NCBI GenBank assembly: GCA_002633005.1
Contig: NMRA01000172.1
Coordinates: forward strand, 269,866-333,865
DNA: 64,000 bases
Source: Phoronis australis
Lineage: Eukaryota > Animalia > Phoronida
Reading direction: 5' to 3'
The notes below the pieces were generated by a model, which saw nothing but the letters and a program-made list of their open reading frames with translations, searched no databases and was not told where the DNA came from. Of this stretch, positions 6,901 through 43,995 are shown one piece after another (positions within the stretch are counted from its first letter, which is position 1; each line of letters begins with the position of its first letter). The position numbers and the translations under genes are program-made.

Positions 6901-9900
6901 CATTCATCACAAGTAAGGGTGATTATACGTGTGTGCCACTGAACAGAACTCTGCACTTGAGTAAAAATCACCGATTGAACTTGTTTATGCCGACTGACAT
7001 GACAATGAATAGCATAATTAGATTTCCTGCTCATTTCAAAATGTGCGTATTAGTTGTAGTAGTACCTCCAAACACCGCCAAGTGGCAGCTACAGTCTGCT
7101 GCCCTGTGTGATCATTTACAGCCCATTAGTTACTAGTGGGGGTCTTTTCTGTCCTGGCCATAATGCCAATCAAATTTCAGCCAAATGCACGTTTATGTAC
7201 ATGTGCTTCAATTTCTGTACGTGCGTTTCGATTTTTCGACACATTTTTCAATTCATGTTTGCGCGTTTCAGTTCATGTGCACATGTTTTAATTCTTGTAG
7301 GCGTATTTCATCTATGCACACATTTTTCAATTCAAGAATGCATGCTTCAGTTCATGCGCACCTGTTTAATTTCATGCTCATGTGTTTAAATTCACGCACA
7401 CATGTTTAAATTCATGAACATGTGACTGTTTAAATTCATGGACACGTTTTTAAATTCATTTAGGCATTTTTTAATTATGCATGCATTTTTTAAGTCAAGA
7501 ATGCATGCTTCAGTTCATGCACGTGTTTAAATTCATGGACACGTGTTTCAATTCATTCACATGTGTTTTAATTCAGTCACCCGTGTTTCAAGTCATGCAC
7601 ACGTGTTTCAATTCAGTCACACATGCTTCAAGTCATGAACACCTGCTTCCTATGTTGAAGAAACAGTGTTAGAATCTAGGTCAACAGTGTTCTCCCTGCA
7701 TGTATATAAACATAGTGTTGCGCCATCTTGGAAAAGTCATGCACCATGTTTGGAAATTTTGAGTCATGTTACAAAAACTGTGAGCCTTCATTTGCAGTAA
7801 AAATGACCGTGAAAAGCTCAGCAAGTGAAAATAGTGTGTAACTGTTGTTGTTTTTGTGAAATAACAAAACAAGATTAGGACACGGAAACATTGCGTGCAA
7901 TTTGTACCATGTTTAAACTTTTACTCTGGCAGAACCGTGGTCAAACTTAGAAAGATTCTGGAAAGCGTTTCAAGTATTAGGAACCAACCAACTGTAGCTG
8001 TTTTGCATTTCATTGTTTACCTATCTAACTATTGTTTGGTTGTCCTGGCACATTTCAATCCAGTATGTATATTCACTCACCATTTTTCTACAGACACTGT
8101 TTTCCCAAAATGCACTCGGTATCCTCTTCAGTTTTGACAGAGCATGTTTTACTAACAATCTCCAGTTGACCTGCTGGTGTTTCACCCACCGTAACCTTAA
8201 TCCCCTACCCCCTGCTGTGTTGGTTTACCCTGTCCTAACCTCCTACCCCCTCCTGTGTTGGTTTACCCTCTCCTAACCTCCTACCCCCTCCTGTGTTGGT
8301 TTACCCTGTCCTAACCTCCTACCCCCTCCTGTGTTGGTTTACCCTCTCCTAACCTCCTACCCCCTCCTGTGTTGGTTTACCCTGTCCTAGCCTCCTACCC
8401 CCTGCATGTGTTGTGTCACCCACCCCTAACCTGTGTTATTACACCTCCATACCTTGTCTCTTACCGCCAACCCTGCCTAATGTATTGTATCACTAACTTG
8501 GTCTGTATCTATAGGTATCCTGTCTATGTCCTTGGCCCTCTCCGGAGGAATGGGCTTTGGTCAATGGACCATAAAAGTGGTCGCCTTCGTAAGTTTAAAG
8601 CGTTGATTACACACACACGGTTATTGGGAAATTCGTGTGCCTGTGCTTTATTCACTGTTTTTGCCTGTGCTGAGAGCTAGTAGCATGACAAATGTAGTCT
8701 TGTGGCATGTTTTTCACTGACTCTTTATAAAACTTCATAATGTTACTGCCAACTGCAGGGCAGTTCTGTTTTGAGTGGCTTTGTAACTCATTGTTGAACT
8801 TAGCGATATGCTCCAATTGTCTTGAGAAATTCTACAACATCATGTATTGGTTGAAGTGTGAAGGGTTTTTTACTTATGTAAACCCCATTCTCCTTTTTAT
8901 CGTGGATTAATTTAGACAATCAAAAATCTGTTCCCTGGATTTTACTACATTTTTGTCAACCCGTACTTCCTGGCTCATGAATTGGGAGGAAAGGGATGGG
9001 GTGAAGGGGGGATGGGGGTTGAGTGTAAAAGGTGTGTGGTGGCACAGACAAGTGGAGCATATCCTGAAAGACTTTATTTGCTAGAGTTGACTGCATTGTC
9101 AAGGCACAGCGCGCACAAAAACATTCGCTTGCAATCAATAATCTGGTACTGGTGGCACATGTAGGACCATGATTCTTCACTACACGCTCTCTGTGTGTAC
9201 AAGGGGTCACAGACTGACCTGATTACCCTGTGTTATTACCTGAACAGCAGTATATGCGCTTTTCTATTTCTTGTTCCGACTCTCGTGTAGGCATTCTTAG
9301 TAGAGAATTCCGATTGGGCAAGCCATACATTGCATTTGGAACGTGGACTATCAAGGTGGTCGCTTTGGTGAGTAATGTGGAGTCTGTCGTCATGTATATG
9401 TCCATTTGCATGTATTTGTTTTAGTTTTTTGTTCTGTACGGTTACTTTCACTACAAATAATGAACGTACACACACTTGACCAGACTCTAGACAGGTCAAA
9501 TTTATATTTTTACGTCTTCCAAGCTTAGAATCTAAATTTCTCTAATCTTTCCTTTTCAACATCACTATGCTAAAATCTGTCGTGGATGCTCATCTGTAAG
9601 ATGATACTTAGCCCTGGTGATGCCCCCTGGTGGATCTTCCAATGATTAATTTCTAGTCCTCTCTTGTATGCCACATGGGGAGGGTGTGAAATAGATCCAG
9701 TGAAGGCCAAATTTAGTGATTGGGCTGTTGTCACTTGATTGTTTCAGTTGCTGCAACTCGCATGTTATTGCATGCGTTTGTTATCTGACAGTCTTAATCA
9801 CATGATTGTTTTATTTTTGATTGTGTTTTGAAGTGATCGCCTATTAACCTCAATTGTATCCTTGCACTACTTTCTGTCACTCACCTACTGAACTGTTGCA

Positions 9901-12900
9901 CACATTTTCACACACTAGTTAGATAGCACAGCATTATTGTGGTGGCACGAATTAGCACAAGATCACGGTTGTGGTGTTTACCATGCTTGAGGAATGAGGA
10001 TTCATTCATAAATGTTATGCCTTACTGACATGTGAGAGAGGGAGTACACTTTTACTGAGACTTGTTAGTTTTTGCAATGTGTTGACCATTCTGGAGGTTT
10101 AAATCACCTGAAGGATCTTTTTGCTGTTCCTTGTTTTATGTCCGTCAGTGTTGTAGTGGGTGAGTATTCTAAAAAGGTGGGTACCATAATTTTCAAAATG
10201 AACTTAATGTCTTAGAATTTTGACACAGTTTAGGGGCGTATATTTAAAGTACAGCTAGATATTCCATCAGATCCATAATGATTTATGAAAAAAATTCTTG
10301 CTTTGGGACTTTATTTCCATTGGAATTCTGACAAGAAGAATTGGAGACTATGAGCAATACTGTCAGATGTATTTATGGCTCAAGTGGACAACAGTGTTTT
10401 ATGATTATTGAAAAGCATGGCACTGTATATTTAAGGAACAACATAGCTGAGAGCTGAACTTTTATCTTTGTTAAGGTGTATTGTAAGTTGTATTCGTAGA
10501 TCAAGACATACATGCAATGAAATTTCTGATTCGGATTTTGAAGTATTATTGTGACAAAAGTGCATAAAATCTGGCTCGTATGAAAAATTTTCCTTCAAGG
10601 TCTGACTGGTTTCTTTCGAAAACTATTGTATTGTGTATAAAATCTCGCGAAATTTAGAGATTAAATTCTATAGCTTCAGAGTTCGTTGACGGATTTCCAT
10701 GAAATTCGACCAATAGCTTTTTATTAAGGAGATGGATAGACATTATCTAATGTCCATTTTGATTATTCTTGAGTTTGGTTTTTGACGTCTGCTTCTACAT
10801 CAACCAAACCACTTTAAGAATCATTGTAAAAATGGCATGTGTGTTCCTACTGTGAAGAGTACGGCTAACAATCTTCAGATGTGTTGGACTACTTTGGCGC
10901 TCCCCGTTGCCTTGGTATCTACCAATCTTTGTGGAATTTTAGCAAAAAAGTTATTATCATCAATGCAACAGCACCTGTCTCATTTCAGATTTGAAATATT
11001 TGACATATGAAATATGATGAAAGGTGGCAGGTCTATTCCTATTCAAGAGAGCACTTGCTGAATTACAAGCTGCATTAAGTTTACTAGTGTTGCTCCCTAT
11101 AGTGAGAATGTTTAAAATAATGATCATTCATAGTATCTGTGTTGTATGCGACGCACACGGTGTACATACATTGTTGTTCTTGTACATACCACATGTGAGT
11201 CTTATCTGAGCAGTTAAAATATTGGAGATCTCTTCACAGAAACACTCCTACATTGCACTAATTCTTGCTGTATTTTAGGGTCACGAGTATTTCAAGAACT
11301 TTGTTGTGGAAGAATTTTGTAAGTATTTTGAATGCTAGTTACCCATTTCATTATGACAAGAAACTCTGATTCTCTCCTGGTTGTTTAGATGTATCTACCA
11401 ATGCTCACTTTCAATATTGTTCCTTAGTTTACATACATTCTGCTGCAACACTGTGTTGATATTGACCAGGTGACACCATGGTAAGAACAAAGTAGAGGAA
11501 CTGACCATTTTCAAAGAGTGTTATGTTATGACCAACACCCAAGTGGTCGTGAACTTGGTGCTCTATATTGCTGCCATCTGGTTTTGGTTTCCTATTTGAT
11601 TTATGCAGATAGGATCTAGGTCAACATCCATAGTTCTTTTAAGATTGTTCCCTACCTTGGTTCATATGGGTGGGAACGATGTCAACTTGTGCTATGCTAT
11701 AAAAAGCTAGATTAAGAGCCATTTGCAATTCATGAAAATAGCTTTCTGTTTTTTGTTAGGTAAGAGTTCAAAGCTAACTGACACGAAGCGATCTAGACAT
11801 TTACTAGAATTAAGCAATGTGTGGAAATGTGATATAGTAAATATGGACGCTGATGTTGGCCAATAGTGAAACATATCAAATAAACTCAGAAAAAAACCAG
11901 GAACCGCAACTGGGAATCGAACCACAGGTCTCTACATTGCCTGTCTACATGGCCAACATCATGTTCTATATTTACTATATCTAATGAGCACATACTGGTA
12001 AATTACTGATTACATAATTGTCCAAATCTTGTGTATAAAAGGTGAAATGCCGCTCATTGGATGGGTGACATAACAGTTGGCTGCAAGCAGTAATTGCTCA
12101 GATGTCAGGTTCTCAGTAGCTCATTGGTAAGAGCACTAGACCGGCAACCTACTTTACTTTTCATAGAGCTCAATGGAAATGATTTGTCATGTTACATGCT
12201 CTGTGTGTGTTTCAGATGGACCAAGGTTCTACGTCAATGTCAGTACTGCACAGTATATCATGAGTGATAGCTTTGGTCTGTCAGGCACTGTCTCCTCCAA
12301 GTAAGTAATTGACTTTCTCACATGACCTGGAATGTGTTATGACACGACTGGTTAATAACACTGAGTACGTAATTTTTTGATATTACATGGGCAAATTACA
12401 ATGTAGTGCAAAGTAGAAAATAATCCATACGCCTTACATTTTATCATCTGCAAAACACTAAAACAACCAAATGTGCGCCAACCGAACAATGCCAGAATTC
12501 CGAGAAGGTGATGAGGTTGTGATTGACAAATTGGGTGTCGCAACTGTACGTACTCCCAGTCAGAAGGACATGCAAACAACCTCTTAAACAGACCCATCTT
12601 CGGCGGCAAATTCCATATCCACATTCATACAAATGGAGACGAGCTCCAACTCAAGAAATGCGGCGAGGCTGTCTAGCTGTGCTGTCTCAAGGTCAATTCA
12701 GTGCTCGCGCACGGGGAAGCCTTGCTGACTGTTATTTATATTTGTTAAGTTTTAATATTCCAACTTCAAAGAATATTAGATTCTAACTTGAATATTTGCT
12801 ACGAAAGTTGAATGCAATTTGTTAAGCTTAAAATAAACCTATTAACAAAAAGTAACTGAATTACTTTACATTGCACAAGCGTGTTTTTACAAAAGTTGCG

Positions 12901-15900
12901 TTGTGTGGTTGAAAGTTTTAGACATGTCAAGTTTTTCAGCAAAAAAGGTCGTTTTTACAGTTCATGTGAGAAAACGAATCCTACACTCATCTCAGATTTA
13001 TGACATGGGCAAAACCTCTTGGAAACAATTGACAAAATCCCTTGGCAAGCCTCGGGATTTTGACAAAAGTTCCAAGAGGTTTTGCCCATGTCATAAATCT
13101 GAGACTCGTGAATGATTCTCTTTGACTGAAATGTGTTACGTTAACAATGTGTAACCTGCGAGCAGAAATAACGCAAATAGCTATAAACAGAAATAACGCA
13201 TAGCTATAAACAGAAATAACGCATAGCTATAAACAGAAATAACGCATAGCTATAAACAGAAATAACACAAATAGCTATAAACAGAAATAACGCATAGCTA
13301 TAAACAGAAATAAAGCATAGCTATAAACAGAAATAACGCATAGCTATAAACAGAAATAACGCATAGCTATAAACAGAAATAATGCATAGCTATAAACAGA
13401 AATAACGCATAGCTATAAACAGAAATAACGCATAGCAAAAACAGAAAAATGGCTGTTTTGAACAAAGCAATCATGTTGCAATGTAGACAAACAGTATTTC
13501 ACAGATACCTATGTTAGCAAAAATAAATACAATTTTATTTTTACATTTTGTGAATCTGCAAAGTCTGTTTCATTATTTTAAAGTCAAAGATGGATTAACA
13601 CTTAACAAAGTTACTAGGGAATTGCACAACTTTTTAAGCTGAATTATGAATAACTAGTTGCACGTGTTGATTGTTTCTCAAAATCAGTGAGGGAACATCG
13701 CCACCTTCAGAAGGAATGAACAACAACGCATAGTCTGATTTTCTTGAAAAAAATCAAAAGCTCCACATGATTAAAGAAAAAGGAAATAATTTTAATAGAA
13801 AACTGTAATGGCATTTTCGAGATTTCACATCAAACACTTATTTTGTTATTGATTCCATTTTGCTATCAATATTCATTTCTTTTCTGCTAAAGTTTAACAA
13901 AAGACATCATTATGTGACCCAGTTAATGGTAGACTGGTTATAAATCAAAAATGAAATGCTAATCACTGTCTACTTTCAAAAAATATCAACCTTTACTGAG
14001 TTAGATATTTGGGTCAATACTCAGACTTTTTGATGAGGCCCATTATAACCTTAACTCAAGTTGTTTTATTATAGAGTCTTGCGACAGCTACATTATGTTT
14101 CTTTCAATGTTGAATAAAAGGGTTCTGATGCGTATACACAATTATACAATACATTACAAAAATTTACATATCTACATTGTCTCTCCTGCTACCAGCTGCT
14201 AACAAATATCTATTGAATTTAAATTATCATACCTCAACATAACATTATCTATGGTAGTTTCAAAGTTTATGTAATTTTGAAAGTTGTTCTTATTCATGAT
14301 TAAGTGGTCATTCAATTAAACAATGATACTCTGCTTTTTAAAAATTGAAGTGGGTAGTTTGCATGATGGTACCAAGACAAGTGACTTGATGCCGGTGACC
14401 TAGATTGTATACAATTGATAAACTCTTTTAATCATTGTCTTGCTCAATATAAACATTTATAAAGCCATATTTTGTAAGTGGAAGTCAGTTGGTGTTGATT
14501 GGCAAAATAACTGGGAAAATAAAAATGTCTAATAGCATGAAGATATAAGAATTTTGTGGAGGAATTAATAGTTGGGACAAAGTGAAAGGTGATTTTCTAC
14601 AAGTGTAAAGCGTTGTCACTCTTTTACGTTATGTTCAGTTGTTTGAAAATGTTCAATTTACAGCCATTCCAGTGGCTATGCCACTCGTGGAAATGGAACT
14701 ATTACTTTGACTATCATTGACCCCAGCAAGTCGTCAACGCAGTCACCAACTATTACCCGGGATATACCCTATGTGAGTTTCTTTTATTAAATGTATTGTC
14801 AGTTCTTTGGCAAAAACCAGGTTCCATTAAGTCGGCGTTCTATTGGCGCATTCTCATGTCTTTGAGTTCACGCCACACGTCAGCAACATGTCAAACAAAC
14901 CAGTATTGTCAAAGTACACTGTCTCATACAGTGTCATTAGAAAGCACATTGATGCAGTCAGTCCACTATTAGGAAAGTACCTGCACAGTTGTTGGGGGTA
15001 AATTCATCACATGTGAAGAGAAATCTTAAAGCTACATTTTACCCTGTTGAGCTGACACTTCAAATATATTTTGAGTTCTTAACTGAAGTGTTTCAGCATT
15101 TAAAAGCATTACTTTGTCTTAGCAAACTCAAATTTGTGTCGAATGAGTTGGTAAGCAAGGGTGACATTATATGTCTACGTATTTTCCTTCGTTAAATGCT
15201 ACACCATTTTCTTGAAATAAACAGATGCTACGACTCAGTAACTAGGTCAACACCGTATTCTAATTTCATTTTTTTACCCGTATTAGGTTTGTGTGTTCTT
15301 AATAATAACAAAAACAAGTCCAGTCATGGTAAGAAAAAATTTGAGACCGATTTTATTAAAGTAAAAGTCTAATTCAATTTTTGTTTTTAGTCTGCTTAAC
15401 AGGGCGAAATTCATCTTTGCAGGTATTAAAAGTGTTTTTTATGCTGTTGTCTAACGTTGATAGGCAATGGATATTAATGTTATGGCAAAACTTGTTATGT
15501 CTGGAAGTAATCATCTAAACTTACACAACCTTTGAGTGACCTGAGTACCATTGAACTCTTGCTCTTGATTTATGTCGACAAATTGTTCCCGTAGATAAAA
15601 CTTAACAAGTATAGCTATGAATATGCCAATTATTATTATTATTATTATTATTTTACAGTTCCATGGTCGCACTGACTTCTTGTTCACGAGGCAGGAGATG
15701 GAAGATATCGCTGGTGGTAACTTGGCGGGGAAAATGTTGCGTGTGGACGCGTCTGTTATGGATTATTATCAGATGGGCACTGGCAAGGGTTGGCAGATTG
15801 CCAAGGTGTACAGTCATGACATCGTTTTGGAGTGGCTCGGTGATCATGTCAGATCTTTCAAGCCAGGAATGCCCTACACTGTCTATGTGAGTTGAGGGGA

Positions 15901-18900
15901 CGTACATACAATACAAAGTAGTACATACTACATGCATACAATACTGCATACTACATGCATGCAGTGCTGCGTATTACATGCATGCAATGCGAAGGGCTAG
16001 ATACTGCGAAATATGATACAATACAATTGCTGGAAGACATGCTTTATTTTAATGCGATTTGTTGGTCACATGGGAGAATATTCTGTTGATGCCCTATCAC
16101 CAACAGGTGGCGTGTGGACTAGTTTAATGATTTTTTCAAAAAGGTTCTTAAAGAGTCATGGATATCTTGTTCATTTCTTACAATTTTTGTAATTGTCTAA
16201 AAAAATTTACATATTATGTCTTAAATGAAGTAGTGAAAAATGATAATTGGGCAGTAATTTTATATGATTTCTTTTTTAGCTTTCAGCATCTAATGAAGAC
16301 AGAACACCCATAACGACTCAACGGCGCCTGGTGACCATCTCTGAGAGCCATCGTCGCATAAATAACGGCGGTACTGTTACCAAAGAGGACAAAGAATACA
16401 CCCTGCCGTCCAGTGGTATCCTCTCCTTGATTATTACACCTGAGCTGAATGACGAGCTCATCACCTTGGAGGTATGTATTTGCCAAGTGATGAGTCATCT
16501 TGTAATATTGACTACGGTAACTTGTCTTCTTTATTTCGCACAAAAATATTCAACAAAATTTTCTATTTTGCAAAGGCTGATCACTTTATTGCAAATAATG
16601 GAAAATTTAACAAAAATTGTTTTATGACATGTACACAGTACAAGCCGTGCTAGTAATAGCCTAAATTTTTTACTCTTTTTGTGGAGAAATTTGACAAAAT
16701 AGAATATCACTTATCAGTCTTATTGTGTGCTAAATAAATGAAGAGTTGATTTATGAAACTATTTTAAATGAGTTTAATGAGACAAATGTGCACCAATCTG
16801 TTAATTTGGTGACAGTAGGCTGTCTGGGATGGAATAATTATGTTATCCATTTATTTATTTAAAATAAGAAACATTTTTGCCAAAGTCATAATGGTCAAAC
16901 ACAGGTACAGTGCAACTACTTGTGAAAGGATGGTGAATCTGGCATCTTGGCTATAAAAACAAAGAAACATTAGGATATTCCCATTGGTTGGAAGTGCAAA
17001 AATTCTGTTGTAATTCAGGTTGTTGCGACAAATGTCCAAACTCTATGTCATGCACACTCATGCCAACACGCGGAATTCAGCGTGACACAACACAGTCCAT
17101 AGATGGCACTGCACATCGCAGATTGTGTTGACTCCCTGATGTTATTGTTAATTAAACTATCAGTAGTATGTGTTAATAGTCAGATACAATATATTATGCC
17201 TAGGCACGCTACGAAGACTTCTCAACTCGCTACAAGATGCAGGCTTATCGCCAGTACTCACCTAGTGACAGTTACATTCAGATCACTACGTCTACAACAG
17301 ATACCAAAGTGAGTTTCATTTACGAAAGTCAGCTACCAGTCTTTTGATTCACAGGGCAACCCAATTCTTGTTGTAATGAAGATTGCAACTGAGTACAGAT
17401 GCAGTACTTGCACTGCTTGCCCAATAAACTGCAGATTAACCAGTTGTCTGGTGTGCACAGCGTTTTTTGAAAAACCTTTCACAGGGCTTGGGTAATTACA
17501 GGTATTTTTGTTTATGGACTAAAAAATGTATGACCTTCCGGTCTTTTAAAGGTATTCTAGAATAAAGATTTAGTTTGCGTTTCATTGAGTACAACTTTTG
17601 GATGTGTCTGAACTTCTGTTTCAAAGTGCTATTAATCCTAGAAAAATGTGTTAAGTAGACAGAAAAGAAAGTCATAAGACCGTCCTACAAAACAATCTTC
17701 GCAACATGTCTGTCACAGCGACCTGTTTTACAATTTTTCAGGTAAATGAATACATGATCTTCAATGTTCACACCAACACAATTGTGGATCAATTGTACTA
17801 CATGGTGAGTTGTTTGATTTAATTTAATTAATTAATTGTTGAGTCTTTGAATGAATCACGTTTCACCAATTTAAAATACCAACTTAATGCTTTACCATTT
17901 TGAAGTTCTGTGTTGTACTTTTCATAGTGCAATAATCTGACCATTTTCAAACATGTCGCCAGCCATTGAAAGCTGGAGGTTGAACTGTCTGGCATTCATA
18001 AATGAGATATTATTATTAAGCAGTGAAACATCAAGAGTGATGTGTAACCAGATAAAATTGTATGAAACCAAAGCTGACTTTAAATCCGTTTTGGGTCAAA
18101 AAACAAAACTTTGCTACAGTAGTGGTTCTGATTACTTAATTACCTCTATGCAATTGGTCTAAACTTGTGCCTCACTCAGATGAGAAAGTATTGCTAGGCT
18201 CCTACAGAACTAATGTGTTTTTACTAGTTGAGACCATGCTTGTCACATAAAATGTCACGCCGTGACAATACAATGACACGCTTTGACAATAACAATGACA
18301 CGCTTTGACAATACAATGACACTGTGGCGCCTCCTAGTGGCATTATTTGTGCACCCTTAGTTGTACCTCCTAAGCCCTCTGCAGGATCTTTATTAAATTT
18401 AGCAAGTGTATATATATGACGTTGACAACGAAGACGACAACTTTAAGATGGATCTGACAAATGCTCAGTCCCCTAGTGGCAATTTCATTTTTTTGTGTTC
18501 CCCTGTTTCTCTAACGTTCCTTGACGGATTTTAATGAAATGTGGTAAATTGCTTTCTGTTAAAAAGCCACTGACATTTTCCTGTTTTTTGATGGATTTTA
18601 AGTATTTTGCTCCACCTAATTGCCTTTTTATGACACAAATTATTCTTTACTTTCAGATTGTCGCCAGTGGAAACATCGTTTTCACAGAGACCTTGATGAT
18701 GTTCTCCCGACACAAGACGTTTTCCGTAGCTTTGTCACGTGACATGGTGCCAAGTGCTCGCATCATTGTTTACTTCATACACCCCACCACTGCTGAGGTT
18801 GTGTCTGACAGTGTGAACTTCTATGTCAAGGGAACTAGTATGAACACTGTATGTATCATGAGGTTGTGTCTGACAGTATGAACTTCTATGTCAAGGGAAC

Positions 18901-21900
18901 TAGTATGAACACTGTATGTATCATGAGGTTGTGTCTGACAGTATGAACTTCTATGTGAAGGGAACTAGTATGAACACTGTATGTATCATGAGGTTGTGTC
19001 TGACAGTATGAACTTCTATGTCAAGGGAACTAGTATGAACACTGTATGTATCATGAGGTTGTGTCTGACAGTATGAACTTCTATGTCAAGGGAACTAGTA
19101 TGAACACTGTATGTATCATGAGGTTGTGTCTGACAGTATGAACTTCTATGTCAAGGGAACTAGTATGAACACTGTATGTATCATGAGGTTGTGTCTGACA
19201 GTATGAACTTCTATGTCAAGGGAACTAGTATGAACACTGTATGTATCATGAGGTTGTGTCTGACAGTATGAACTTCTATGTCAAGGGAACTAGTATGAAC
19301 ACTGTATGTATCATGAGGTTGTGTCTGACAGTATGAACTTCTATGTCAAGGGAACTAGTATGAACACTGTATGTATCATGAGGTTGTGTCTGACAGTATG
19401 AACTTCTATGTCAAGGGAACTAGTATGAACACTGTATGTATCATGAGGTTGTGTCTGACAGTATGAACTTCTATGTCAAGGGAACTAGTATGAACACTGT
19501 ATGTATCATGAGGTTGTGTCTGACAGTATGAACTTCTATGTCAAGGGAACTAGTATGAACACTGTATGTATCATGAGGTTGTGTCTGACAGTATGAACTT
19601 CTATGTCAAGGGAACTAGTATGAACACTGTATGTATCATGAGGTTGTGTCNGTTTTCTTTTGGAAATAGCTCTCGCAATGTAAGACAACGGTCATTTATT
19701 GCATGTAACCGTTGAAGTAAAATGCTGTTGCCCAACCTGATGGTAGTCAAATGCACTGACTAAAATGCTGAACTGTCATTTGTTTTCCATTTGATGACCA
19801 TTCTGAAATGCTGCTACTTGAAATCTTATCTCATTTGGAATTTCTTTGCTTTAACTTTTGAGGACCTTACTGCACGTACACTATTAAGAATTACGTATTG
19901 ATGGAAGAGTCTGTTGAGCTTGACAAGAAGTGGCTGTAAAACACACGATTCAGCTTGATTTGTAACTTGTGCCATTTATTGTCACCTGTACAGGTGATTG
20001 ATGAGCTGCTTACCTACGATGCTCACGCCAACTCGTCGTTCGGCCATACCTGGTATTTACCTGACCAGAAACAGAAGAGAGTCTACTACCCATCACCCAC
20101 GTACGCGCCTGATGCCAACAAAACATTTGCAGTAAGTTCATACTTTGACAACATTGAACTCAATTTTAATCATTTGTGGTGTATTTAGTCGATAACGGTT
20201 TGCTGAACTTACCTGGAGTTTTGAGGGTGGTGCTTTTATTTTGCTGTTATGGTGAAGGACCTGAAGCTACATCCCCAATCTCTCTCTGAAAGATTCTGGA
20301 AAAACGTGTTTCCAGTTGAAATTTTTTAATTCAGACTTTTCGTGTTCTTTACATTTTACAATGAAATGCTTTGGATTGTTTTGATTTTTTGGTTATTTGC
20401 AATTTTAGTTGTCAATTAGTTTCCAAATACTAGGTTATATATTTTTATTATACTGTCTGACTAATAAATTTTGTAAGTCTTAAACCGGCATGAAAATATA
20501 AATCACTATCATTACTGTGATCTGCATGCCACCTATTGAGTAGAACCCAGGACCCTCTGCTGACTGTGCTGATGCTTTAGTCCTCTGAGTCATCTGGTAT
20601 ATATGAATATGCAAATCTTAAACTGGCATTTGAGTCCTGGTCGGAGCAGAAACTCTTTCAGACTTCTATCTATTCATTAGGTTGCATGATTTGGCCAATA
20701 GGTGGCGTGCAGACCAGACTGAAAAAATTAATGTTTGAGATGTACAATATATTGTCATTTCATTGAGTATATCTTGTAGCTTTATTTTAATTGCCAGATG
20801 TACTTTTTTAGAATTTTTGCATTATGGTTTTTGATATGTCTTCAAATATTTATTCAGACAAATATATAGTACGCACAATCCTTGTCTATTTTATTTTTGA
20901 ATAGTTGTAATAGAAATGGATATTTGTTTACTCAGGTTCACCATTTTGCATTCTATATCATAAAACAATATGTTTTCAGTTTGCTGGGCTCCACGTCTTC
21001 ACGGATGCTAAGCTGATTGAAGTGAAACGTAAGTCGATTGTCAGGACAACAGTACAGGAAAAGAAAAGTCAGATTTGATACAAAAAAAAATTATTGAACC
21101 AAATCCATTTGTCTGTCTAAATTATGTAAGTTCACCAAGTTATAATTTTGGAGATTTGTTTATTTTTGCATTAATTTATTTTTGTGCGGGTAGTTTGGGA
21201 TAGCGCCCTCTTTTGGATGCACTTTTGAATGTTAATTTTTCTGCAGTCCTCAGTGTAATACACCTTATTGTTGATAGCAGTTCGTGAATCATTCGCTAGA
21301 GTGGCGTCACAGTTCACGCAAAGCATTATGGGCAATATTTTGGATTTTGTTTTAAGAATGGCCTCTTTAGCAGATGACGAGTTACGAAATGGCGGCAATC
21401 AACAATACGGTGTATGCCAATGCCACTTTATAATTGTTCAAATTCTGTATTCCGCAGACAACTGTAACTTCACACTTGGTTGGTTGCCATGCTGGAATGG
21501 CGAGTGTTACCGTAACCATACTCGCTGTAATGGAGTCTTTGACTGTAAGAAAGATGGCGCCGATGAGTTTGGATGTACGTACTTTTCTGTATCAGCTTCA
21601 TATTGTCTTTGCCATGTTGCTTTACTTCGTGGAAGTGTTGCAGTGTAAAGTACCTGTTCATATTTGGCGACATTTTAGTGTATTTACAAGTTGGCTTCAT
21701 TTGGCTTACGTAGTTGAATGTGTGTTCAAAATGAAAAACATTCTTGTTCAGATGGGTTAGACTGAGACAAGCCCAACTTTGTGGCCTGATTAAGACACTG
21801 TAGATTTTTGTTTTTTGCTTGTAGAAATTGTATCTGAATTGCAAATTATGTCCACCAATCTTTGTTTTCAGGAAATTGTTACTTGTCCATAGGTGTGACT

Positions 21901-24900
21901 TAATTAAAGAGACTGTACTGAATTTTATGCATTGTGAGACGTGCTGAACATGAATTAATTTCATCTTCAGCATGCTTTCAAGTTTCAAGAATATTCACTT
22001 AAATCAAATTTAAGCATTGTTTATTGCAGTTTGGTTAGCTGCTCTTTTGTTAAAAGTTATATTTGCCAAGCTTAGCATAATATACCTTTAATTCTCTGTA
22101 TTTTGAACACCACGGTTTGATTTTTCACATTTGGATTGCTATACTGCAAGGTCCTGCTGTTGGCCATTCCAAACAATTTCATGTTGTTGTTGACTTCAAC
22201 CTAAGATTACTACTTTAAGCACAGTTTTCATTGTCAAAATTTTTCAAGTGCAAATGTCTAGTGAAAATATGCGGATGTCGGCTTATTATTGGGCAGTTCG
22301 CACTTCACGTGGTCGCCATCCCGCTTAAATGCTGTCATGAAATTGGGTCAAATTTAAAACCGACTTGTGCCGACCTACCTGTATTTTGGTGAGAGGGACA
22401 GAAAAGTACTCAACAGAGCAACTCACCACCACCCCACCCCAACAAGCATATCCAACAGTTCACGGCAGGCATGAAATGGAACAAACCACAGGACACAGTC
22501 CTGAACTCCATGAATAAGACTCCTGCAGTACCAGGCAGAGCTAACAAACATTCCAAATAGATTGTGATCGCTTAGGAATCCTCACAACTTCCAGCAAATA
22601 TGAGCTGATTAAGTGCCAAACTTAGTGTCTGACCCGAATTTCCCAAACTGCGGGGAGATCACTCAAATTCAAAATCCTAGTGAAAATTCTTGACGGTGAA
22701 ACTGATGTTTTACTTTATGTCTTAGTTTTGAATTAGTGTCGTTGTCATACATCTCTCTTGTAGTTGTAGGATTCTTGACGATGCTTCAACGAATTCATTC
22801 ACTCGTCAGCTTATGCATACTGGATGTTCATTGCTTGATCTCAACTTTATAATGGTCTTGCGTAGGCAGCTTGACTACTTGACTTTTAGATTCACATCTG
22901 TGATTGCAGTGGTTTAATGAGTGGCTAATAACACTTTGCTTTCACTAGAACTTCATTTGCAGCTCAACTTTAATCTAGTTTTAGTTTCCACTTTGTGAAT
23001 TAAGTTCTGAAATGGAAGCCTCAATTTAAAATTGATTCCACAGCGGTGCCTTCTTTTGACTTTTATGCACGGAAAAATGGAAAATGCTCTATGCTTCTTT
23101 TTTATCATGATCTTAAATGGTAATATCATTTGGAGAAATAGAAGTCTTGGAATTGTTTTAATTTTAGATGCGAAGCAACAAATTAATTTTCGCCTCCAAA
23201 GTGTAATTTTTGTTTGTCCATTTTTTATTTGACACCTATTTTTGGTAATCTATTTGTAGAACAGTGTCTAAGTACACATAATAAGCAACAACCTGAGTTT
23301 CTGCAACTGAAGTGTGACATTAAGTTATGTGCTGTATGCAAATTAACTCAATGTTTGTCTTGTAATTGGTTTGTCATATGCTTTAATCAACATTGTGAAC
23401 TCATTACTAATGCGTACTTCTCATTCTTGTGCTACTCACATATTTAGGCGAGAAAAGTGACACGTTTCAAGTCGATACCAAGTTTTGGAACAGCAAACAC
23501 ATCGACCATCACTTCCTAGATTATGATTGGTTGTGGGAACAGGCGTACACCAAGTAATTTGACTATAAATGTGGCTTTGTACCGTCCCATCAGATTAACA
23601 CAAGCATGTACCCGACGTACCTCCAATTTTGTCGCTGTGTGTCCGTTTCTTTTGAAATGACACCAACTCTGCATGTGTCAATGTGTGTGATTTACTAGTT
23701 AAACAAAACTTCCATGTCTGATTTTTTTTTCATTTTCAAATAAGTGTTGCAACATTTCGATGCTCATTCTCAAGATCTTAGTTTTGTTTTCACTTTTTCA
23801 CATTCTACTACTATTTATTCTTGGTGTACAGACAATCATGGGCGGCATATTAATTACTTTCCATGTTAAAATGAACATGTTTTTGTATGAAATTTTTCTC
23901 TGTGCTCTGAAAATAGCGTAAAAATTGTTGAAGGCAAGGAATGTAAACACGGTGATATTAGACATGGAAGTCTGTTGTATACTTGTTTAGATCAGTTGAT
24001 TTCCACCCGTGTTCATGATTTTCTTGCTTGTTTGTTTTCAGTTTGGTGCTTCCAGTCACTAACATTGCATGACTTCTAACTTGCTGGAACTACTAACGCC
24101 GTCTAGCTGTAGAGTGGTGACTTGCATGTGAATCACTCATGTCTTCTTATTTCATTGTTATGTAATGCACAAAGAGTCCTGGGAATATTTAATGATCATT
24201 AGTAAGGTAGTTTTCAAATTAATCAAGACAACACCAAACTTTGAAGTTTTGATGCACATAATTATCCATTTTGTATTGACTAGAACCCATTTCAGTTCTG
24301 GCTAAATCTTGACTGGTATTACTCCATTGCAAAACCTTGCTTTTAATTGTTCATTTATTAGTGAACTTGAACTTTAAATAATTGCTGGTCCATTAATAAA
24401 TAAACAGTTACTGTCTAGGTGCAGAAATGTCACTCGGATTAAACTTTGACAAATGTGTTATTTCATTGCCAACAAAATTTGACTAAAATACGAAATTATT
24501 CCCATAAGAAGTTCTTTCAAGTTTGTTAGAGTTTGACAGTTCTGTGGAAGTCTGTCTCGTTTTTTTGAAAACTAGTAACTATACCTGCATACAATCAAAA
24601 TTTTTAAAATAAGGTTCTTGCCAAATGTTTATCACTTGTTATGGAAATTTCCCATCATTCTTTGTACAATACAGTTGGAACTTTGTTTCTGCACAACTTT
24701 CTTGTTTCTTTTCTGTTTTGCATGAAAATGCTTTGTGTTCAGTTTCCTGCGTGTGCCTAAACACCATGACTGCACGATCGCGTTGCATGGCTTGATGCTG
24801 TCTCATCATTGTCAGATAGCCTACACCCCCACCCCAGTTTGTAACCCCACAGCCAGTTGTTGCCTGTTGTCACTGTGAGTCTGTGTGTGTCTGTGCAGGC

Positions 24901-27900
24901 CCCAAACCTAAGGCCGACCAGTATGATGCTACTCTGTGGCGCACCGCCCACATTGGGAAACTCTACATGGGCAACGACTGGGCATGGCAGGAGTCCTTCA
25001 CTAAGTATTGTTTCAACTCATTCTGTCTTATGTTTTTAACTCAGTTAAAGCTGCTTTTAGCCCTACTTAGCTGGCTAAAAACAAAAGTCGTATTTGCCCT
25101 TCTCTCCTATAAAATCGGTCTCTGAGTATTCTTTACCTTGATTGGAGTTTGGTTTTCGAGATTCACAATTTTAGGTTTGTTCAACTCCATAAACTCTTTC
25201 TTAAGTTGCTAGTGATTTTAATGTTTTTATTGATAATAGAACTAGAATCACATGGTGAGGACTATTTTGAAACCGATTTGATTATAGTAAAGTGCCTAAT
25301 TTGATTTTTCATTGTTTTACCCAGCTCAACAGGGCAAAATACAGCTTTAAGTAAGAGGTTAAGTCTGAAAGTATTTCTCAATGACATTTTCGAATATGTG
25401 AATTTTAGAACATTTGGCAGCCATGTTGAGATTTAAGATGGACATTGACTGCTACAGAAACTAGCCTGTTTTATGTACACGAATGTTCTAGTGTAGTGTT
25501 CAGTGTTGTTTAATATAGCTTGGTTGTATACAGACCTAGTCCTATTGTTAGGAGTGTCATGTGACTAGGCAGGTTGGGGGAGATGTAGAGCAAGAAAATT
25601 GGGTCCTTTGTTGTACTGTATTTTCACTGTCCTTTGACTGATGCAAAATTAACATTAACTTCTACGTAATACTTACTGTTACCTGAATGGTTACATTCTT
25701 TGTACTAACGATTTCCCCAGAGCTGTTAGAAATAGATAAATACTTCAGTTGCTGTAATGTTTCTTATGTGTACATTGTAGGGTCACATGACACACCGGGT
25801 GTGTTAGGTAGACCAAATGTGAAGGGTCACGGCACCCATAGTAACTGCTATGATTGACTTGAAATTTTTAAAAAGAAATTTAAACTGAGGTAACAGAATT
25901 ATTTTTATAGTTGTACTTTTTCTTCTGGCTAGCTTAAAACTTGCAGCCATTTTTATGCGCCCACATATTTATATGTGGACGCATTATTTTACATTCGATC
26001 ACTTTTGTTTAAAGTTCCTTAATCTCTGTAATGTGATGCCAGGTGCAGTACCCTGGTTACCATATGTCCACCATTTGCAGGCCAGATGGACGTATTGATA
26101 TCAAGGTAAAGGTACCCAATCATCCGGGGTCATGGGTCATCAACGCATTTGGCATGAGTCGCAATAAGGGACTTGGGTTCCTTGGATCTCCTGCACGGGT
26201 GAGTAGACACACAAGAATTGAAAAACACCTCTATATTAACTTAACTTGGTTCGAAAATAGTTCTCATGCCAATACCCACTTTTAGATAAAACTGACTGCT
26301 TCAACTCCACAGTTGCCAGACAATATGCCTGTATCAATACCAAAATTATAAACGTGTGTATAGAGCAGGTACGTCTGCACCATCCTACATGGTCACATGG
26401 TGAGACATGAGTATGGTTCTGTGAAGGTATCAACTGCGTGCGCACACATTATACCAGATGAGTCTTTGTTTATCATTCCTATTACAAAGCAACCTAATCG
26501 TGTGGTAAAAAAGAGAACCCTCCCAGGAAGTTAAGTTCGGTGATATCATTGGCTGAGTTACTCCTTCTTTGTGATGTCATAATCACTGCTTTGAGAGTAG
26601 TGGACTGGTTTTACCTGCAAAAGGTTGCAAAGTATTGTTCTACTGGGATCAAGTTTTAATGTTTGATTTGATCTACTGAATGCTTTTATTTGATTTTATT
26701 ATATCATTTAATTCCCCTACGTGTTAACTTGCAGTACGATGCTACGCGTCCATTCTATATGGTCGTTGAGAACGCACAGCATGTACGTTTTGGTGAACAG
26801 GTCGGGTTCCGGGTGACCATTTTCAACTACTGGGACACAGAGATTGAGGTGCTGACGTGGTTACATGACTCGCCCGACTATGACTTTGTCATCGTTGACC
26901 ACGGTGGGAATGTGAACTCCTACGCACCCCGTACAGGAAGCAAAGACATGCAGACTCTTGTTGTGGTAAGTGTGACAGGAAGAGAAGAGGATTGTGGGAT
27001 ACCAGTGCATGTTATGTTTATGTGTTAGTTGTAGTGAATGTTTTGTCATCCAGTAGTTGAATGATGGTATGTGTACATGGTTCGTGTTCCTTAAGTCAAT
27101 TGCCGCAGGGTTTGCTACTCTAAATTTAAGAATGTTAATTGAATGTTTCACGGTTTCGTATAGTCACATGCCATCAGTTGTTGAATTGTTTTCAAGATAC
27201 GCTGTACATCTGATCTATTGTCTGCCAAATAATGATTAATCACACTTACTGTGTGCTGTAATTTCTAGGTCAAGGCAGGCACTTCACGCTACGTGTTCTT
27301 CCCTGTATTGCCGAAGAAAGTGGGTCACGTGGAGGTCACCATCAGTGCTATGTCATTTGTTGGAGCTGAGACGGTCAAGAAGACGTTCTATGTTGAGGTA
27401 AGTGGCCCAGGCGAGTGGATAAGTGTATCCTGGGGTGAGAGAAGGGCCTGACTACCTTGTTATGCATAGATGTATTGGTAGTTTGGCTATTGTTGCTCAA
27501 TGTCATCTTTGTCATTCATAATACAAAAAATTCATACTGTCAAATTTTTATGCACTCACATACTTATGTGTGGATGCATAATGTCGTCAATCCTGCCTGT
27601 CCGTCTGCCGCCGCCATCCGGCATCTGCTGCTCTATCTCCAAAACCCTTTTATTAATGTTCGTATTCCTTTTGTGGATGGGACGTCATGAGCGTCATTAT
27701 ATTATATGATGGCGACTTTCAGGTCGATCCAATGAACGCTGTGCCTCCTAGTGGCAATTTCATTTTTTCCATTTTCCTCAGTCTGTTTCTCTGAAAATTA
27801 GTAAATAGCTTTCTATTAAAGAAACGATGACATGTTCCCATTTTCAGACCTATTTTGCGCCATCAAGTGGTCATTTTTACTGTTTTTCTAGTCTGTTTTT

Positions 27901-30900
27901 GGTATCCACCCTCTCAACCAAACCACTCTAAGCATGATTTTGAAAATTGGCATTTATGTTTCTACTGTGAAGAGGACGGTTGATAATGATTTTCAGACGA
28001 CTCTAACTACTGTGGCACCTCCTAGTGGGAGTTTTTTGTGTCTGTAGCTGTATTTCCCAAATCCTCTGCAATTTTGGCTGGTATGTTTATTATGAAGTTG
28101 ACAACGCACTACAACAACATTTGGATAGATCCAACTGGGCCTCCTAGTGGCATTTTTTTCGGTGTCCTTTGTATGCTTAAAACTTCTTGTCAGATTTTTA
28201 TTAATTAAAATTTATAAATAGGTTTCTATTGAAAGAGTCGACATGTTCTCGTTTTCGGATAGATTCGACGTATAGCTGCTGTTTTTATTGTCACAAAATT
28301 TTTAATAGGTTTCTATTAAGGAAACAATGATGCCTTCTCATTTTCAGGCAGATTTTATGTATTCTGTGCCACTTGATGGCCATTTTAAAAATTTTTGATT
28401 GTTTTAGACGTCATTCTCTCCATCCATCAAAATTTGGTGATGTATTCCTGATGAGAAGAATGAGGCTGGGGTTGCTTTTTCGGATGTGTTCAAATACTCT
28501 CCCCCCCACTGGCAATGTTTTTGCATCCACGGCTATATCTCCTTTTGCAAAATCTTTCTGAAATTTTGCAGATGTGTTTCTATGGAAATGGCAACAGATG
28601 ATGGCCAGTTTCAGACCAATCCAACAGAGTTGTGCTGTCTAGTGGCAATTATATTTTTTACGTTTGCCTCTGTAACATTACTTAAGGGTTCCTTGATAAC
28701 TTTTCATGAAATTGAGCAAACAAATTTCTATTATGAAGACATCAGCATCTTTCTAGTGGCCATTTTAATTAGTTTGTAGTCTGTTTTTGTCGTCTGGTTC
28801 TGTATCTGCCATATCCTGCAGAGGATCGTTATAAAAATTGTCAGATTTGTTCCTACTGACAAGAGCATTGACTGACGTGGATTTTCAAATGAATCCAACT
28901 ACATGGGTGCCCCCCAGTGACATTTATCTTTGTCTCTCCTAAACCCCTTGCAAGATGTTTTTGAAGTTTTACAATTGTATTGACCTGACAGCAGATGGAT
29001 GGATTTGACTACTGCTGTGGTTTCTAATGACAATTTGTTTTTTTACTTTTGCCTTAAGTTTGTATCTTTGAAGGTCTTTGACAGATTTTCATAAAATTTG
29101 GCAAATCATTGTGAGAGACGATGACACCTTCCCATTTTTGCATGGGTTCAATGTATGCTGAGTCATCTAATGGGTATTTTTATGATACAGATAAACAACC
29201 CTAGAAGCACACTATTTGCGGTGCAGTCATGGGCACAGTTCAACACTCCGCACTGTTTTTTTTTTGAGTAGTTGAATAAACATGTGACTCAAATATTAAA
29301 ACCTAATATTTGCAGCTTGTGCTTAAACAAATGGTTGAACTGTGCTCTTTTTACTTTCCTGGCCATGTGTGATTTGTTGTTCCATCTGTTGGCAGTAGCA
29401 TACGATGCGGCAGCTGTCGCACACCCTAATATACAGGGCTGTGGAGTACTCAAAAATGCCCGCTCGAAAATACGACTGATTGCATATTCTGCACTCAGAT
29501 TTCCAGATTTGCACTCGTAAAAAGTGACTAATGAAAAAAAGCCGAATGTAGGACAATGTCCATACGAGCGAGTCCAATTTTCTACTCATATGTTTTACTT
29601 TTTCTTCTCGTATTTAGGAGCGTGAACTCGCTTATAATGAGCCCTGGTGTGACTGGGTGGCACGGCTTGCTTACACATGGTGCCACGTTGACCACACCCC
29701 TCTCACTGTACCCAGCTTCATCTGATCAACTGACTTGTTACACGACCAATGATATTCCTAAATTAGCCATATTTAGAGTATGCTCCTACGCATATCCTGA
29801 TCACGCGAGCGCATACCCCCTTCACATGGTGCGGGCTTGGTTGCACACTGTGTTGATTAACGAGTATGGTTGAAATCAGTTGCATAGTGAAATACAGCCA
29901 CTACTTCAGTGACTTAGACCTCACAATGGATGCAACAACTGTTGCGTACTAAGTATCTGTGACCAATGGTTCATCAAGTGCGACTACTGTGTGTTAATTG
30001 TGAAATTTACACTATCCATACTGTTTATTTGTAAAGGCCAACGGTGTTACAAACTATTACCACACACCGTTCCTGTTGGACCTGTTGAACACTGGCTCCC
30101 TCATCCTCCCTGAATTCAACATCACCATCCCGGCAGAGTTCATCCAGCCAGAGACTTCCTGGCATCTCTACGTACCTGGCTCACAGAAGGTCACCGTTAG
30201 TGCTGTTGGTGAGTCATAACTTAATATTGGTTACAGTGAACCAGGCTGACTAGAACCCTGGTCTGTTCTAGTCGCTGCACCTGCTGAACTTCTCATCTTA
30301 AATGACTGTAAAGTTACTTAATTGGTGAGCTCTTTATTTTACTCTGTGAAATCCTGCTGAGCCTGCAGAAAGGAACAAACCACATTACTTCCTTGTTTCT
30401 TTCCACGAAGAGTTAAATAACCGAAGCATGTTACAGACGTCTGCCATCTCTAACACCATAAGTAAACACGTGTCTTTGAACTGTGTAACGGACAGTGTTG
30501 TGGACTGGCTTATTGTGCTTGGAGGCCAGTGTGAAGATAATTGCTGCTTGTTCTTCGTTGACAATTTTTTTTGGATGTTCTTGAAATGACGGTCACACAA
30601 ATTTGTCATGTTAAGACACTTAATTCTCCATAACTGCACCCCATCGCTGATCACTGAGATTGCTATAATTAATGAAAATGACACTCAATTTTTACATAGT
30701 GAAATAACTCGTTTGAGCATCAGACTCTAATGTTTTTTTTTTCAAAACATATTAGCTGATTACATGAGATAGGAGATGTGCTTATACTTTACATAAAGTC
30801 AACAAAAATCTTTCTTAATGTTACTGTGGCTTCAGGGCCAAAATTTACTCGACGGCTTTGTTGGTAATTAACCCAAGATTCTTTGGCTGAAGGTTGCCCA

Positions 30901-33900
30901 CATGTTCACCTTATTATTGTGTCCTAGGTGACGTCATTGGGCCAGGCATCTACGATGACTTTGTTACCTCCCTGTCTGTGCTGAGAGAACCTTATGCCTG
31001 TGGTGAACAGTCAATGTTCAACTTTGCGTATAATCTGTACAACCTGAAGTTCTTGAAAGACACCAATCAACTGAGAGATGATATACTGAAGACTACACTG
31101 GAAGGGCTTAACTTAGGTACACCAGTTTGGATTGGGGGGGGGGCTCTCCCGTTTCCCAACGGTNAACTAGTCTGCATAGTGGCTTAAAATTTTGTGGAGG
31201 ATAGTTGTCAATCATGGGTGTCATTCACACACAATAGACCTTTTGAAATTGACAAGCAAGATCATTGAATTAAAGCAGTTCTTGATGAACCCTGCTCTGT
31301 GTAAGTAAACACAGCTTAGCAATGGGCTTATGGTCCTGGCTGAGAAGATAATTGTTTTATTACCCCGCGTGGATTCTTGGAATCCATTGTAGCATTATGA
31401 TTGTCTATTTCTACTGTTAAGCACTGATCAGAAATATTCGATATTTCTCTGCAAAGTATTGTATCTTGATGGGAACAACACTCCTAAACATTTTGCAACT
31501 AATGTATCCGTCTGTTTAAACACCTGTAATAGTGATTAATTTGAGAAACACAAGATTTGATAGTGAGTGAAAATATAATGAAACATGAGCTTTCAACAAA
31601 CTAGAGAGATTATTTAGATACACAAGTGTTCAACTAATTTAAAAGTATAAAATTCTAACAGACAACTAGACTCCATTTCTCATGTATGAAGTTTGGTACA
31701 ATGTCACCAATTTCAAGGTCTTCTGACATTATGGTGAACGACCACAATTTTTCAAATTTTTTTTATCGATTGTAGCTTCGGTACAGAACTTGAACGTGTT
31801 ATTGGTTTAATTTGATACTACATTGGTATCTTTTGTCAGAAAAGAAGAAACTAAAACTTCCCTTGTCTGCCATATTGTGTCCTGCATTGGTGAGGATTTT
31901 TTGCTTTTTTCAGAACTTGAATTATTACAAATAAAAAAGTCACATTTTCCCCAGAATATATGACATTGACATGTCGAGCATACAGAGTAAGAGCGGTGAG
32001 GGAATGTCTTGTATCTCCACAGGTCTGCAAGAGAATGATGCGTACTACCGCGAGGAGGGCATGTTTGCCTGGATGCTTGTTTTTGAAGACTGGAGCCAGC
32101 CCAGCGTCTGGCTCACTGCCTTCACTGTGGCCACTATGCATGACGCCATTGTGGCAGACTGGGTCAACGACTTCTTCATTGATATCTCCATGCTGGATAA
32201 GATGGCGTTGTGGTTGTGCTCACAGCAGAATATGGAGGGGCCGCTTAAGGGAAGCTTTAAAGGTTGAGTTGACTAAGTTTCCACCACGTGACTGTAGATA
32301 TAATGTGGATATTATAGACACAGTGGTCTATTGTATAGAAATAAGTGAAAGCTTAGGAACAGAGATATAAATGTTTCATGAAATATGGAGGCGTGTTAAT
32401 GAGGATTACTTTTGTTAGAACTTTACACAAAATGTTATATGACTTGTTCTTGTATCTAATGTTAAGATGTTATATGTAGACTTGTCTCCCCTGTTAAGAG
32501 TGTTGCATGCTAGTTGTGCTTCATGCCATTTCATGGGTTTAAAGATAAGTTATCATCATTGAAATGAAATGACGTTCACTCTTCTCTTCATTTCAGAGAG
32601 TTTTAATCCATATGTTAGAAGTGTACTTCAGGGTTTAGTTACCTCTTTTAATGAAGAGTGATGACCTTTTGCCCTTGAGTGCGAGTCATGCAAAATCCTT
32701 GTATGTTTCTAGAGCTGGCGCAGGTTTATGACCGCAACATGAGGTCACCGTACACGGAGGTCAACGGGGTGCAAGTTAAGGAGAATGTGACCCTGACTGC
32801 CTACGTCTTGATTTCATTGTCCAAACTTACTAAGCTGACTTCTTGGAATGTAAGTTCAACTTTGAATATTATGGAGATCTATTGCTTGACAGTCTCAAAA
32901 ATTATGATGTAATAGAACATCACTAGGTGGTGCTTGTGGCATATTGAATGTTATTTTATTAATGTTCCATGAGGTGCACGTTATAATGATCAAAATCTCA
33001 GCAAATAACAGTCTTAGAAGTTGTAGTCTTTAATGGTTTTTGGTTATTCACATGTCTGAAGCTGCAAACTATTCTTTGAGCTAAATAGCTAGTGTGCAAA
33101 ATACAGGCTTTATTTTAGAATTGCGCTCTGCATCAGTGGTGCATAAAATTTCTTAATTCTGGTCATTGGGCACATAAAAAAGGATTTGCTGTCATGCTTT
33201 ACTTTGTCTTTGGTCATAACCATCATGTTGATATTCTAACACAATGACAATGCAGAGTAGCCAATCAAAGCCAATGTCAGTGATCAAAACAGCAATGTTA
33301 TCACCCAGGTCAATTATAGTATGCATGAAAGTATGCAGACTCAACTTTTATTTTATGTCTTTGATTTACAGTTATGTGTTATGATGAATAATAAATCGGC
33401 GCATAACATGAAGCAGACAAAATCGCACACTCTAAAGTGCCCTCTTAAGAATCAATTCGAAAAAAGCCAGAAAATTTTTATGAATCCAAAGGTCTTTGAA
33501 ATTGGTCCTTAGATTTGAGGCTTTATGTGCCAGTTAACCCAGAACTACATTTTTGTAAAATGATCCCTGAAAATATAATGTAATACCGTTTCAGGTCAAT
33601 TTGGTGACACAAATAGCTCAATTTCAATCAAATAATTTTGATTCTTCAGGACGCGCGTGCTAAGGTAGACCAGGCACAAAAACTGGCCCAGGATTTTCTG
33701 GGTACCAAAGTAGAGACAATCACTGACCCATATACCATGGCTATTGTCTGCTATGCACTTCACGTGTCAGAGAGCACACGCAAGAGTGCCGCCTATCAAC
33801 GGCTAAAGAGCATGAAGACTGAGAGTGAGTAATTAAGACAATAACTACTCCATGTTATTTGCTCAATGGTGACAGTTGTTAGAATGCCTGCTGATTAGCT

Positions 33901-43989: not shown

Positions 43990-43995
43990 AATAAA
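43990..43995 (+). terminator. Probable distal poly(A) signal of gene 1 (3' UTR ~2.6 kb)
   Basis: AATAAA followed by a GT-rich tract (gtgtctggtgttgatttt); sequence becomes visibly CpG-richer just downstream. Confidence 0.45.

Follow-up and report, generated by a model that had tools for sequence, protein, structure and literature searches.

A frame-locked pair of alternative exons at the bait position, and a second pair in MG2, of a thioester-bearing Mcr-type gene in Phoronis australis

A 64,000-nucleotide stretch of the Phoronis australis genome (assembly GCA_002633005.1, contig NMRA01000172.1, positions 269,866 to 333,865 of the forward strand; hereafter the window, with positions counted from its first letter) contains an Mcr-type gene of the A2M/TEP proteins, in which two alternative exons, A and B, occupy the position equivalent to the bait end of A2M and CD109, and the reading frame admits one or the other. 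The best explanation of this arrangement, which we put at slightly short of an even chance, is that the choice between A and B changes the protease trigger of a CD109-like, thioester-bearing surface protein. RNA evidence comes from three raw stranded runs (X2, X3 and X4) and one contig set aligned to positions 12000-31900. The features on which the argument turns are listed below, in labels (MG2, MG6b, LNK) that combine alignment with the accepted nomenclature.

21458-21574, + strand: constitutive LDLa exon, upstream of A and B (PF00057, E 1.2e-4).
21575-23447, + strand: intron before A, with sense RNA near exon depth in two of the three runs (retention or read-through).
23448-23553, + strand: candidate exon A, 106 nucleotides (nt), encoding the last LDLa Cys, a linker, a plug-equivalent segment and the first MG6b strand, with a weak acceptor.
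24899-25004, + strand: exon B, 106 nt, in the same slot as A, with a weak donor; expressed.
26081-26198, + strand: constitutive MG6b exon, downstream of A and B (PF00207, E 1.9e-4; RNA depth 18/21/12 at 26147 in X2/X3/X4).
30999-31010, + strand: intact CGEQ thioester motif, within exon 30928-31116.

The coordinates, 106-nt lengths, AG/GT ends, phase (1 to 2) and both translations of A and B were re-derived from the sequence and all agree with the initial annotation, as do its statements on the frame: joining A to B places a stop three codons beyond the junction (PQT*), omission of both shifts the frame, and either exon alone keeps it open. It is on the reading frame, and not on spliced reads, that A and B are regarded as mutually exclusive. 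Like the MG2 pair described below, they are homologous tandem exons of the same phase whose joint inclusion or joint omission breaks the frame. A scan of 21580-26080 for a third alternative (an AG..GT stretch of 60-160 nt in the phase of A and B, free of stops and containing W.W) yielded nothing beyond the two exons and shifted versions of their boundaries. The PF00057 score of the LDLa exon is slightly below the curated cut-off because this exon holds only part of the domain.

Aligned without gaps, A and B are identical at 54 of 106 nt, whereas A matches the 106-nt intron windows tested at 26.9 nt on average and 43 nt at most, and the only stretch shared by the flanks of A and B is a 22-nt match (E 0.077). 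Because this identity is far above that of the intron windows and the flanks are unrelated, the pair is, on sequence comparison, an old exon duplication, attributable neither to chance nor to two haplotypes, and the initial annotation was right to consider the latter artefact unlikely. The same residue is encoded at 12 of 36 codons, and identity by codon position (19, 22 and 15 of 36) is highest at second positions. Exon A retains its exact length, its splice ends and three Trp, with no stop and no indel, and an aromatic residue is found at -5 from the first Trp of W.W in A, B, mollusc orthologues and A2M. In a simulation of neutral decay, run without indels, the splice ends, frame and three Trp were retained in 17.9%, 2.8% and 0.4% of cases at 10%, 20% and 30% change, respectively, so that long neutral decay of A is unlikely but recent silencing conceivable. 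The acceptor of A is the weakest in the gene (-0.4, against a constitutive mean of 9.8 and minimum of 4.7), and the donor of B is nearly the weakest (0.6, against a mean of 8.3 and minimum of 0.3). The intron between A and B is 1345 nt long and so presents no steric block to joint inclusion. Docking-site and selector pairing among the three introns gave best duplexes of -29.1, -33.5 and -34.4; eight crude shuffles came, at their best, to about 1 kcal or less from these values, and nothing stood clearly above them.

Exon B is used in RNA at the depth of constitutive exons in all three runs: its depth at four sites was 22/20/20/13 in X2, 19/16/16/18 in X3 and 9/9/9/15 in X4, all in sense orientation, compared with 14/25/18 (X2/X3/X4) at constitutive site 15685 and the values given above for 26147. 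Among the 40 RNA differences listed (851 more were counted), the four within B are all synonymous, and none is inside A. The 664-nt bin that contains A has a depth of 2.7/3.8/2.7, compatible with A itself at up to 17-24, and binned depth neither demonstrates nor excludes inclusion of this candidate exon. In the intron before A, bins reach 11.5-16.5 in X2 and X3 and 2-3 in X4, compared with 0-0.5 for an ordinary intron bin. Read-through of this intron still supplies the last LDLa Cys, followed by 24 codons and a stop; its retention or read-through could yield a truncated form ending 24 codons past the LDLa exon.

The LDLa and A/B segment of an Mcr orthologue (P0004) aligns to the A2M bait and RKYFPETW stretch, and likewise to CD109, in agreement with the position that the initial annotation gave to the slot. 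In A2ML1 and A2M the RKYFPETW stretch is a plug threaded through a channel formed by MG2, MG3 and LNK, the retraction of which after cleavage triggers activation (PMC9156758, PMC9352918). The further suggestion of a free hypervariable bait has to be given up: identity across 25 mollusc sequences is 27% in the first half of the slot and 77% in its second, C-terminal half, and in a model of a bivalve orthologue with MG1-MG7 the segment (residues 742-779) is ordered, its predicted local distance difference test score (pLDDT) being 72-76 over the linker and increasing to 87-93 over the plug. Disorder of the slot in a fragment model (pLDDT <50) was rejected, since the fragment is without MG1-MG4 and the segment is ordered when these are present; the alignments of the fragment and MG-ring models also differ in depth (37 versus 74). 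Both models, which represent orthologues and not the A and B isoforms of the Phoronis gene, are native-like, with template modelling (TM) scores of 0.61 and 0.66 to native CD109 versus 0.32 and 0.53 to the active form. As aligned and modelled, then, the A/B exon is a short exposed linker of about 15 variable residues, the plug and the first MG6b strand. Between A and B, identity is 29% in the first half of the slot and 33% in the second, and in the 26 residues after the Cys, A is richer in acidic and aromatic residues and B has two prolines and one extra basic residue.

Of 74 Mcr-type cluster representatives extending as far as the site (a count that excludes three fragments ending before it), five retain the CGEQ motif and 69 have lost it. 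The host protein has Asp at the position of the catalytic His, which would favour amine targets, as in C4A. The retained thioester suggests a triggered conformational change, and aids the protease reading of the initial annotation. CGEQ is also found in Varroa, Tropilaelaps and Tubulanus and in the proteins P0021 and P0107, contrary to the general description of the Mcr clade as mutated at the thioester site (PMC7016707, PMC4833078). The host gene is placed in this clade by descent, as estimated from sequence, and not under a thioester-less definition: a quick, midpoint-rooted tree of 32 rows separates a 25-row Mcr clade that includes the model from seven CD109/A2M rows, with a Shimodaira-Hasegawa-like approximate likelihood ratio test (SH-aLRT) value of 100 on that split. 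The Mcr rows include fly-relative Mcr, Scolopendra MCR1 and BgMCR1; the model groups with sequences of annelids, nemerteans and molluscs, without clear branching order among them, and its identity is at most 42%. This tree, the LDLa domain at the bait position (its six Cys align with those of Mcr orthologues) and the Cys stretch at the C-terminus bear out the Mcr-type identity first proposed. With one exon as query, 120 matches were obtained in a profile search, of which the named ones are Mcr proteins and spiralian orthologues; a word-based search for homologues, also from a single exon, gave no match, and a protein atlas gave only a generic A2M label. The proposed membrane anchor corresponds to a C-terminal hydrophobic segment (hydropathy peak 2.06 over 19 residues, 14 residues from the protein end), which is a predicted anchor, either a helix or a glycosylphosphatidylinositol (GPI) signal.

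Although the A/B pair had been noticed from the start, the CGEQ motif, a second exon pair in MG2 and a tandem paralogue had been overlooked. These last two and the remainder of the gene are located as follows.

1857-41367, + strand: host gene, with 32 exon slots modelled; its signal-peptide exon was not found in the window.
8515-8588, + strand: MG2 exon a, 74 nt, of the second frame-locked pair.
9291-9367, + strand: MG2 exon b, 77 nt, with 13 of 25 aligned residues identical to those of a.
41158-41367, + strand: last coding exon, encoding a Cys-rich stretch and one hydrophobic segment (transmembrane helix or GPI signal).
55341-64000, + strand: tandem Mcr paralogue, represented by its 5' part; its first exon resembles one for a signal peptide.

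Joint inclusion or joint omission of MG2 exons a and b leads to a stop; the pair is situated outside the span of the RNA alignment. The SDQP motif, typical of Mcr orthologues, is absent from both versions. A C-rich 38-bp tandem array that precedes exon a (8198-8441) could form a duplex of -45.8 kcal with a G-rich stretch located between the two exons (approximately 8982-9020), versus -36.6 for the best of eight crude shuffles; such pairing would loop out exon a, and may reflect base composition only. The possibility that the MG2 pair forms the wall of the plug channel was unsupported, the A2ML1 residues Leu130, Leu216 and Val598, mapped by motif, not being encoded there. In the paralogue, the MG2 exon is single (59623-59702), one residue longer again, and 31-35% identical to a or b, compared with 57-82% for seven other exons. 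A tblastn search of 34 modelled exons against the window for further duplicated exons found only the two pairs, the 65-bp tandem array described below and the paralogue.

The host protein deviates from the Mcr consensus precisely at the two switched slots. Among four full-length paralogues of a single species, Owenia fusiformis (a truncated fifth was left out), the MG2 slot has the lowest identity (0.43) and the LDLa slot the third lowest (0.46) of 32 segments with a median of 0.66; in molluscs, by contrast, the MG2 slot (0.72) belongs to the best conserved segments. Two lineages would thus vary the same two segments, Phoronis by exons and Owenia by genes. Owenia has at least six Mcr paralogues (P0117 and P0129-P0133), all without CGEQ. 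Isoform divergence resembling that of A and B was found at neither slot in any of 23 Mcr clusters (87 long members) from molluscs, flies, mites, one annelid and one flatworm, as annotated or assembled; the lowest identities within a cluster were 0.79 (LDLa slot) and 0.92 (MG2 slot), a value of 0.08 from a fragment without MG2 having been set aside.

Switching of exons at the bait position is itself known. Drosophila Tep2 has five exon-5 isoforms at the hypervariable (bait) position and is the sole alternatively spliced gene among six fly Tep genes (PMC5489563), so that fly Mcr is not; Tep2 shares with the Phoronis gene its alternative exons at the bait position of a thioester protein, but is an iTEP without LDLa, whereas the Phoronis gene has two exons at the slot and a second pair in MG2. 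In Biomphalaria, BgTEP2 has 12 mutually exclusive exons and BgCD109 and BgA2M are switched as well, and scallop CfTEP has six exons (all according to PMC7016707). These genes have tandem mutually exclusive exons in the variable region, each ending in conserved residues on its C-terminal side, an arrangement that the Phoronis gene would share. The main text of the same survey reports such splicing in three genes and not in BgMCR1 or BgMCR2, in which the thioester is mutated, unlike that of Phoronis. Alternative exons at the bait slot have been reported for all of these genes and also for tick and shrimp A2M (PMC5489563, PMC7016707, PMC2685406 taken together). Fly Mcr, BgMCR1 and Scolopendra MCR1 share with the host protein the LDLa domain at the bait position, the C-terminal Cys stretch and the hydrophobic anchor, but members of the Mcr/TEP6 clade differ from it with respect to the intact CGEQ, the two exon pairs and the tandem paralogue. 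Human CD109 and A2ML1, the closest solved folds, have no LDLa and a long disordered bait, whereas the host protein has LDLa and a short linker. In membrane-anchored CD109, cleavage of the bait activates the protein and the thioester traps the protease (PMC12927315). The initial annotation knew of no exon switching in the Mcr clade, and none was found in the literature searched, which was mostly open-access (including PMC5969219 and PMC9363628); as far as this search extends, the Mcr-clade instance and the MG2 switch, both deduced from the sequence, appear to be new.

If the A/B choice acts on the protease trigger, it would exchange the exposed linker and plug that follow the LDLa domain, and with them the set of proteases that trigger the predicted membrane-anchored protein, while the MG2 pair would retune a second surface of the same protein, giving up to four isoforms. 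Exclusivity would probably be kept by weak splice sites together with nonsense-mediated decay of messages with both exons or neither; B would be the main form in the three libraries and A restricted to certain tissues or conditions. Counted in favour of a protease trigger are the switching of the same slot in Tep2, BgTEP2, BgCD109 and BgA2M, the frame lock, the expression of B, the features kept by A, the plug alignment, the native-like models, the CGEQ motif, and the rank of the two slots among the Owenia paralogues; a serine-protease site has also been proposed at the equivalent place in fly Mcr, next to the corresponding Cys-rich domain (PMC12254109). Several observations weigh against it. 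Cleavage of fly Mcr is only proposed (PMC12254109), and most Mcr proteins are without a thioester yet act in binding and junctions (PMC4833078, PMC5969219). The variable linker of about 15 residues compares with 31 unmodelled residues in the A2ML1 bait, no furin-type motif was found before the LDLa domain, and the MG2 pair is without the channel residues of A2ML1. The plug Arg and Phe, strictly conserved in CD109 and A2ML1, are His and Leu in A and Lys and Met in B by ungapped count from the Trp, the Arg (-7 from the first Trp of W.W) being shared by human family members and mollusc Mcr. The depth of the bin containing A is wholly explicable by the adjoining introns (residuals -4.8, 0.2 and -2.4), no A/B junction read was among the RNA joints listed, which were repeat-filled, and X2, X3 and X4 are all from a single study. 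The fuller proposition, that this is a thioester-competent cell-surface Mcr with two independent exon switches (one for the protease trigger, one in MG2) and up to four variants, in which the segments varied in Owenia mark the specificity-determining surface, we consider unlikely as a whole.

It is fairly unlikely that both pairs are used but alter binding and not cleavage, through surfaces made up of the linker next to the LDLa domain and the MG2 loop, the targets being microbial ligands, a receptor, other Mcr molecules or junction partners, with tissue-specific forms for adhesion or recognition as the outcome. Fly Mcr does bind Candida and build septate junctions without a thioester (PMC4833078, PMC5969219), the A/B segment is largely ordered in the MG-ring model, and the MG2 slot, which has no link to cleavage, is nonetheless the most divergent among the Owenia paralogues and between the paralogues of the window; but binding leaves aside the retention of a motif lost in 69 of 74 Mcr-type representatives and the switching of the same slot in protease-activated relatives.

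A different and likewise rather unlikely account is that B is the sole productive exon and that A, recently silenced or rarely used, serves through its weak acceptor mainly to cause retention or read-through past the LDLa exon, which would tune output through message decay or produce a short secreted form ending after LDLa. The acceptor of A is below every constitutive acceptor, the intron before it is covered in X2 and X3 far above ordinary introns, no depth is left over for A, B is nearer the mollusc consensus (24% versus 11%), and read-through provides the last LDLa Cys before its early stop. Against this, A is intact despite about 49% nucleotide divergence from B, with introns devoid of recognisable similarity, so that selection must have acted on it during most of its existence; the presence of another intact pair in the gene points to working exon switching, and three libraries of one study are too few to show the absence of A. 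An assembly artefact, whether of two haplotypes or of collapsed paralogues, is very improbable: imperfect assembly nearby (a missing exon, a tandem array and an N at 19651) and the adjoining paralogue lend it some plausibility, but the flanks are unrelated, no neighbouring exon is duplicated along with A or B, A and B differ at 52 of 106 nt whereas RNA from other individuals differs from B at about four, and sense-strand coverage is unbroken, bin by bin, from the LDLa exon through the exon downstream of the pair.

The open frame of the host gene comprises 521 and 958 residues flanking one missing exon. At 18784-19651, the 3' end of exon 18657-18848 is repeated together with its donor in a 65-bp tandem array (11 extra copies) that ends at the N at 19651, and an expected exon of approximately 50 residues is missing there, likely due to an assembly gap. 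A possible 3' untranslated region of about 2.6 kb (41368-43990) ends near an AATAAA at approximately 43989, identified by eye. Fragments of a dispersed repeat are found at 25948-25987, 27600-29200, 18320-18560 and approximately 41800-42700, of which those within 12000-31900 have heavy one-strand RNA coverage originating elsewhere in the genome; the copy at about 42 kb was recognized by eye only.

The finding would extend bait-position switching to the Mcr clade and add a further switch, in MG2; it also shows that Mcr proteins have not lost the thioester throughout, although the surprise is limited by the familiarity of alternative exons at this slot in other thioester proteins. Activation of Mcr by cleavage and the basis of its specificity, matters of proposal even in the fly (PMC12254109), become directly testable with two natural versions of a putative trigger segment that share one backbone and a thioester motif, and if the A/B choice does change the protease trigger, P. 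australis would provide an isogenic comparison, made by nature, for asking whether proteases activate Mcr at all.

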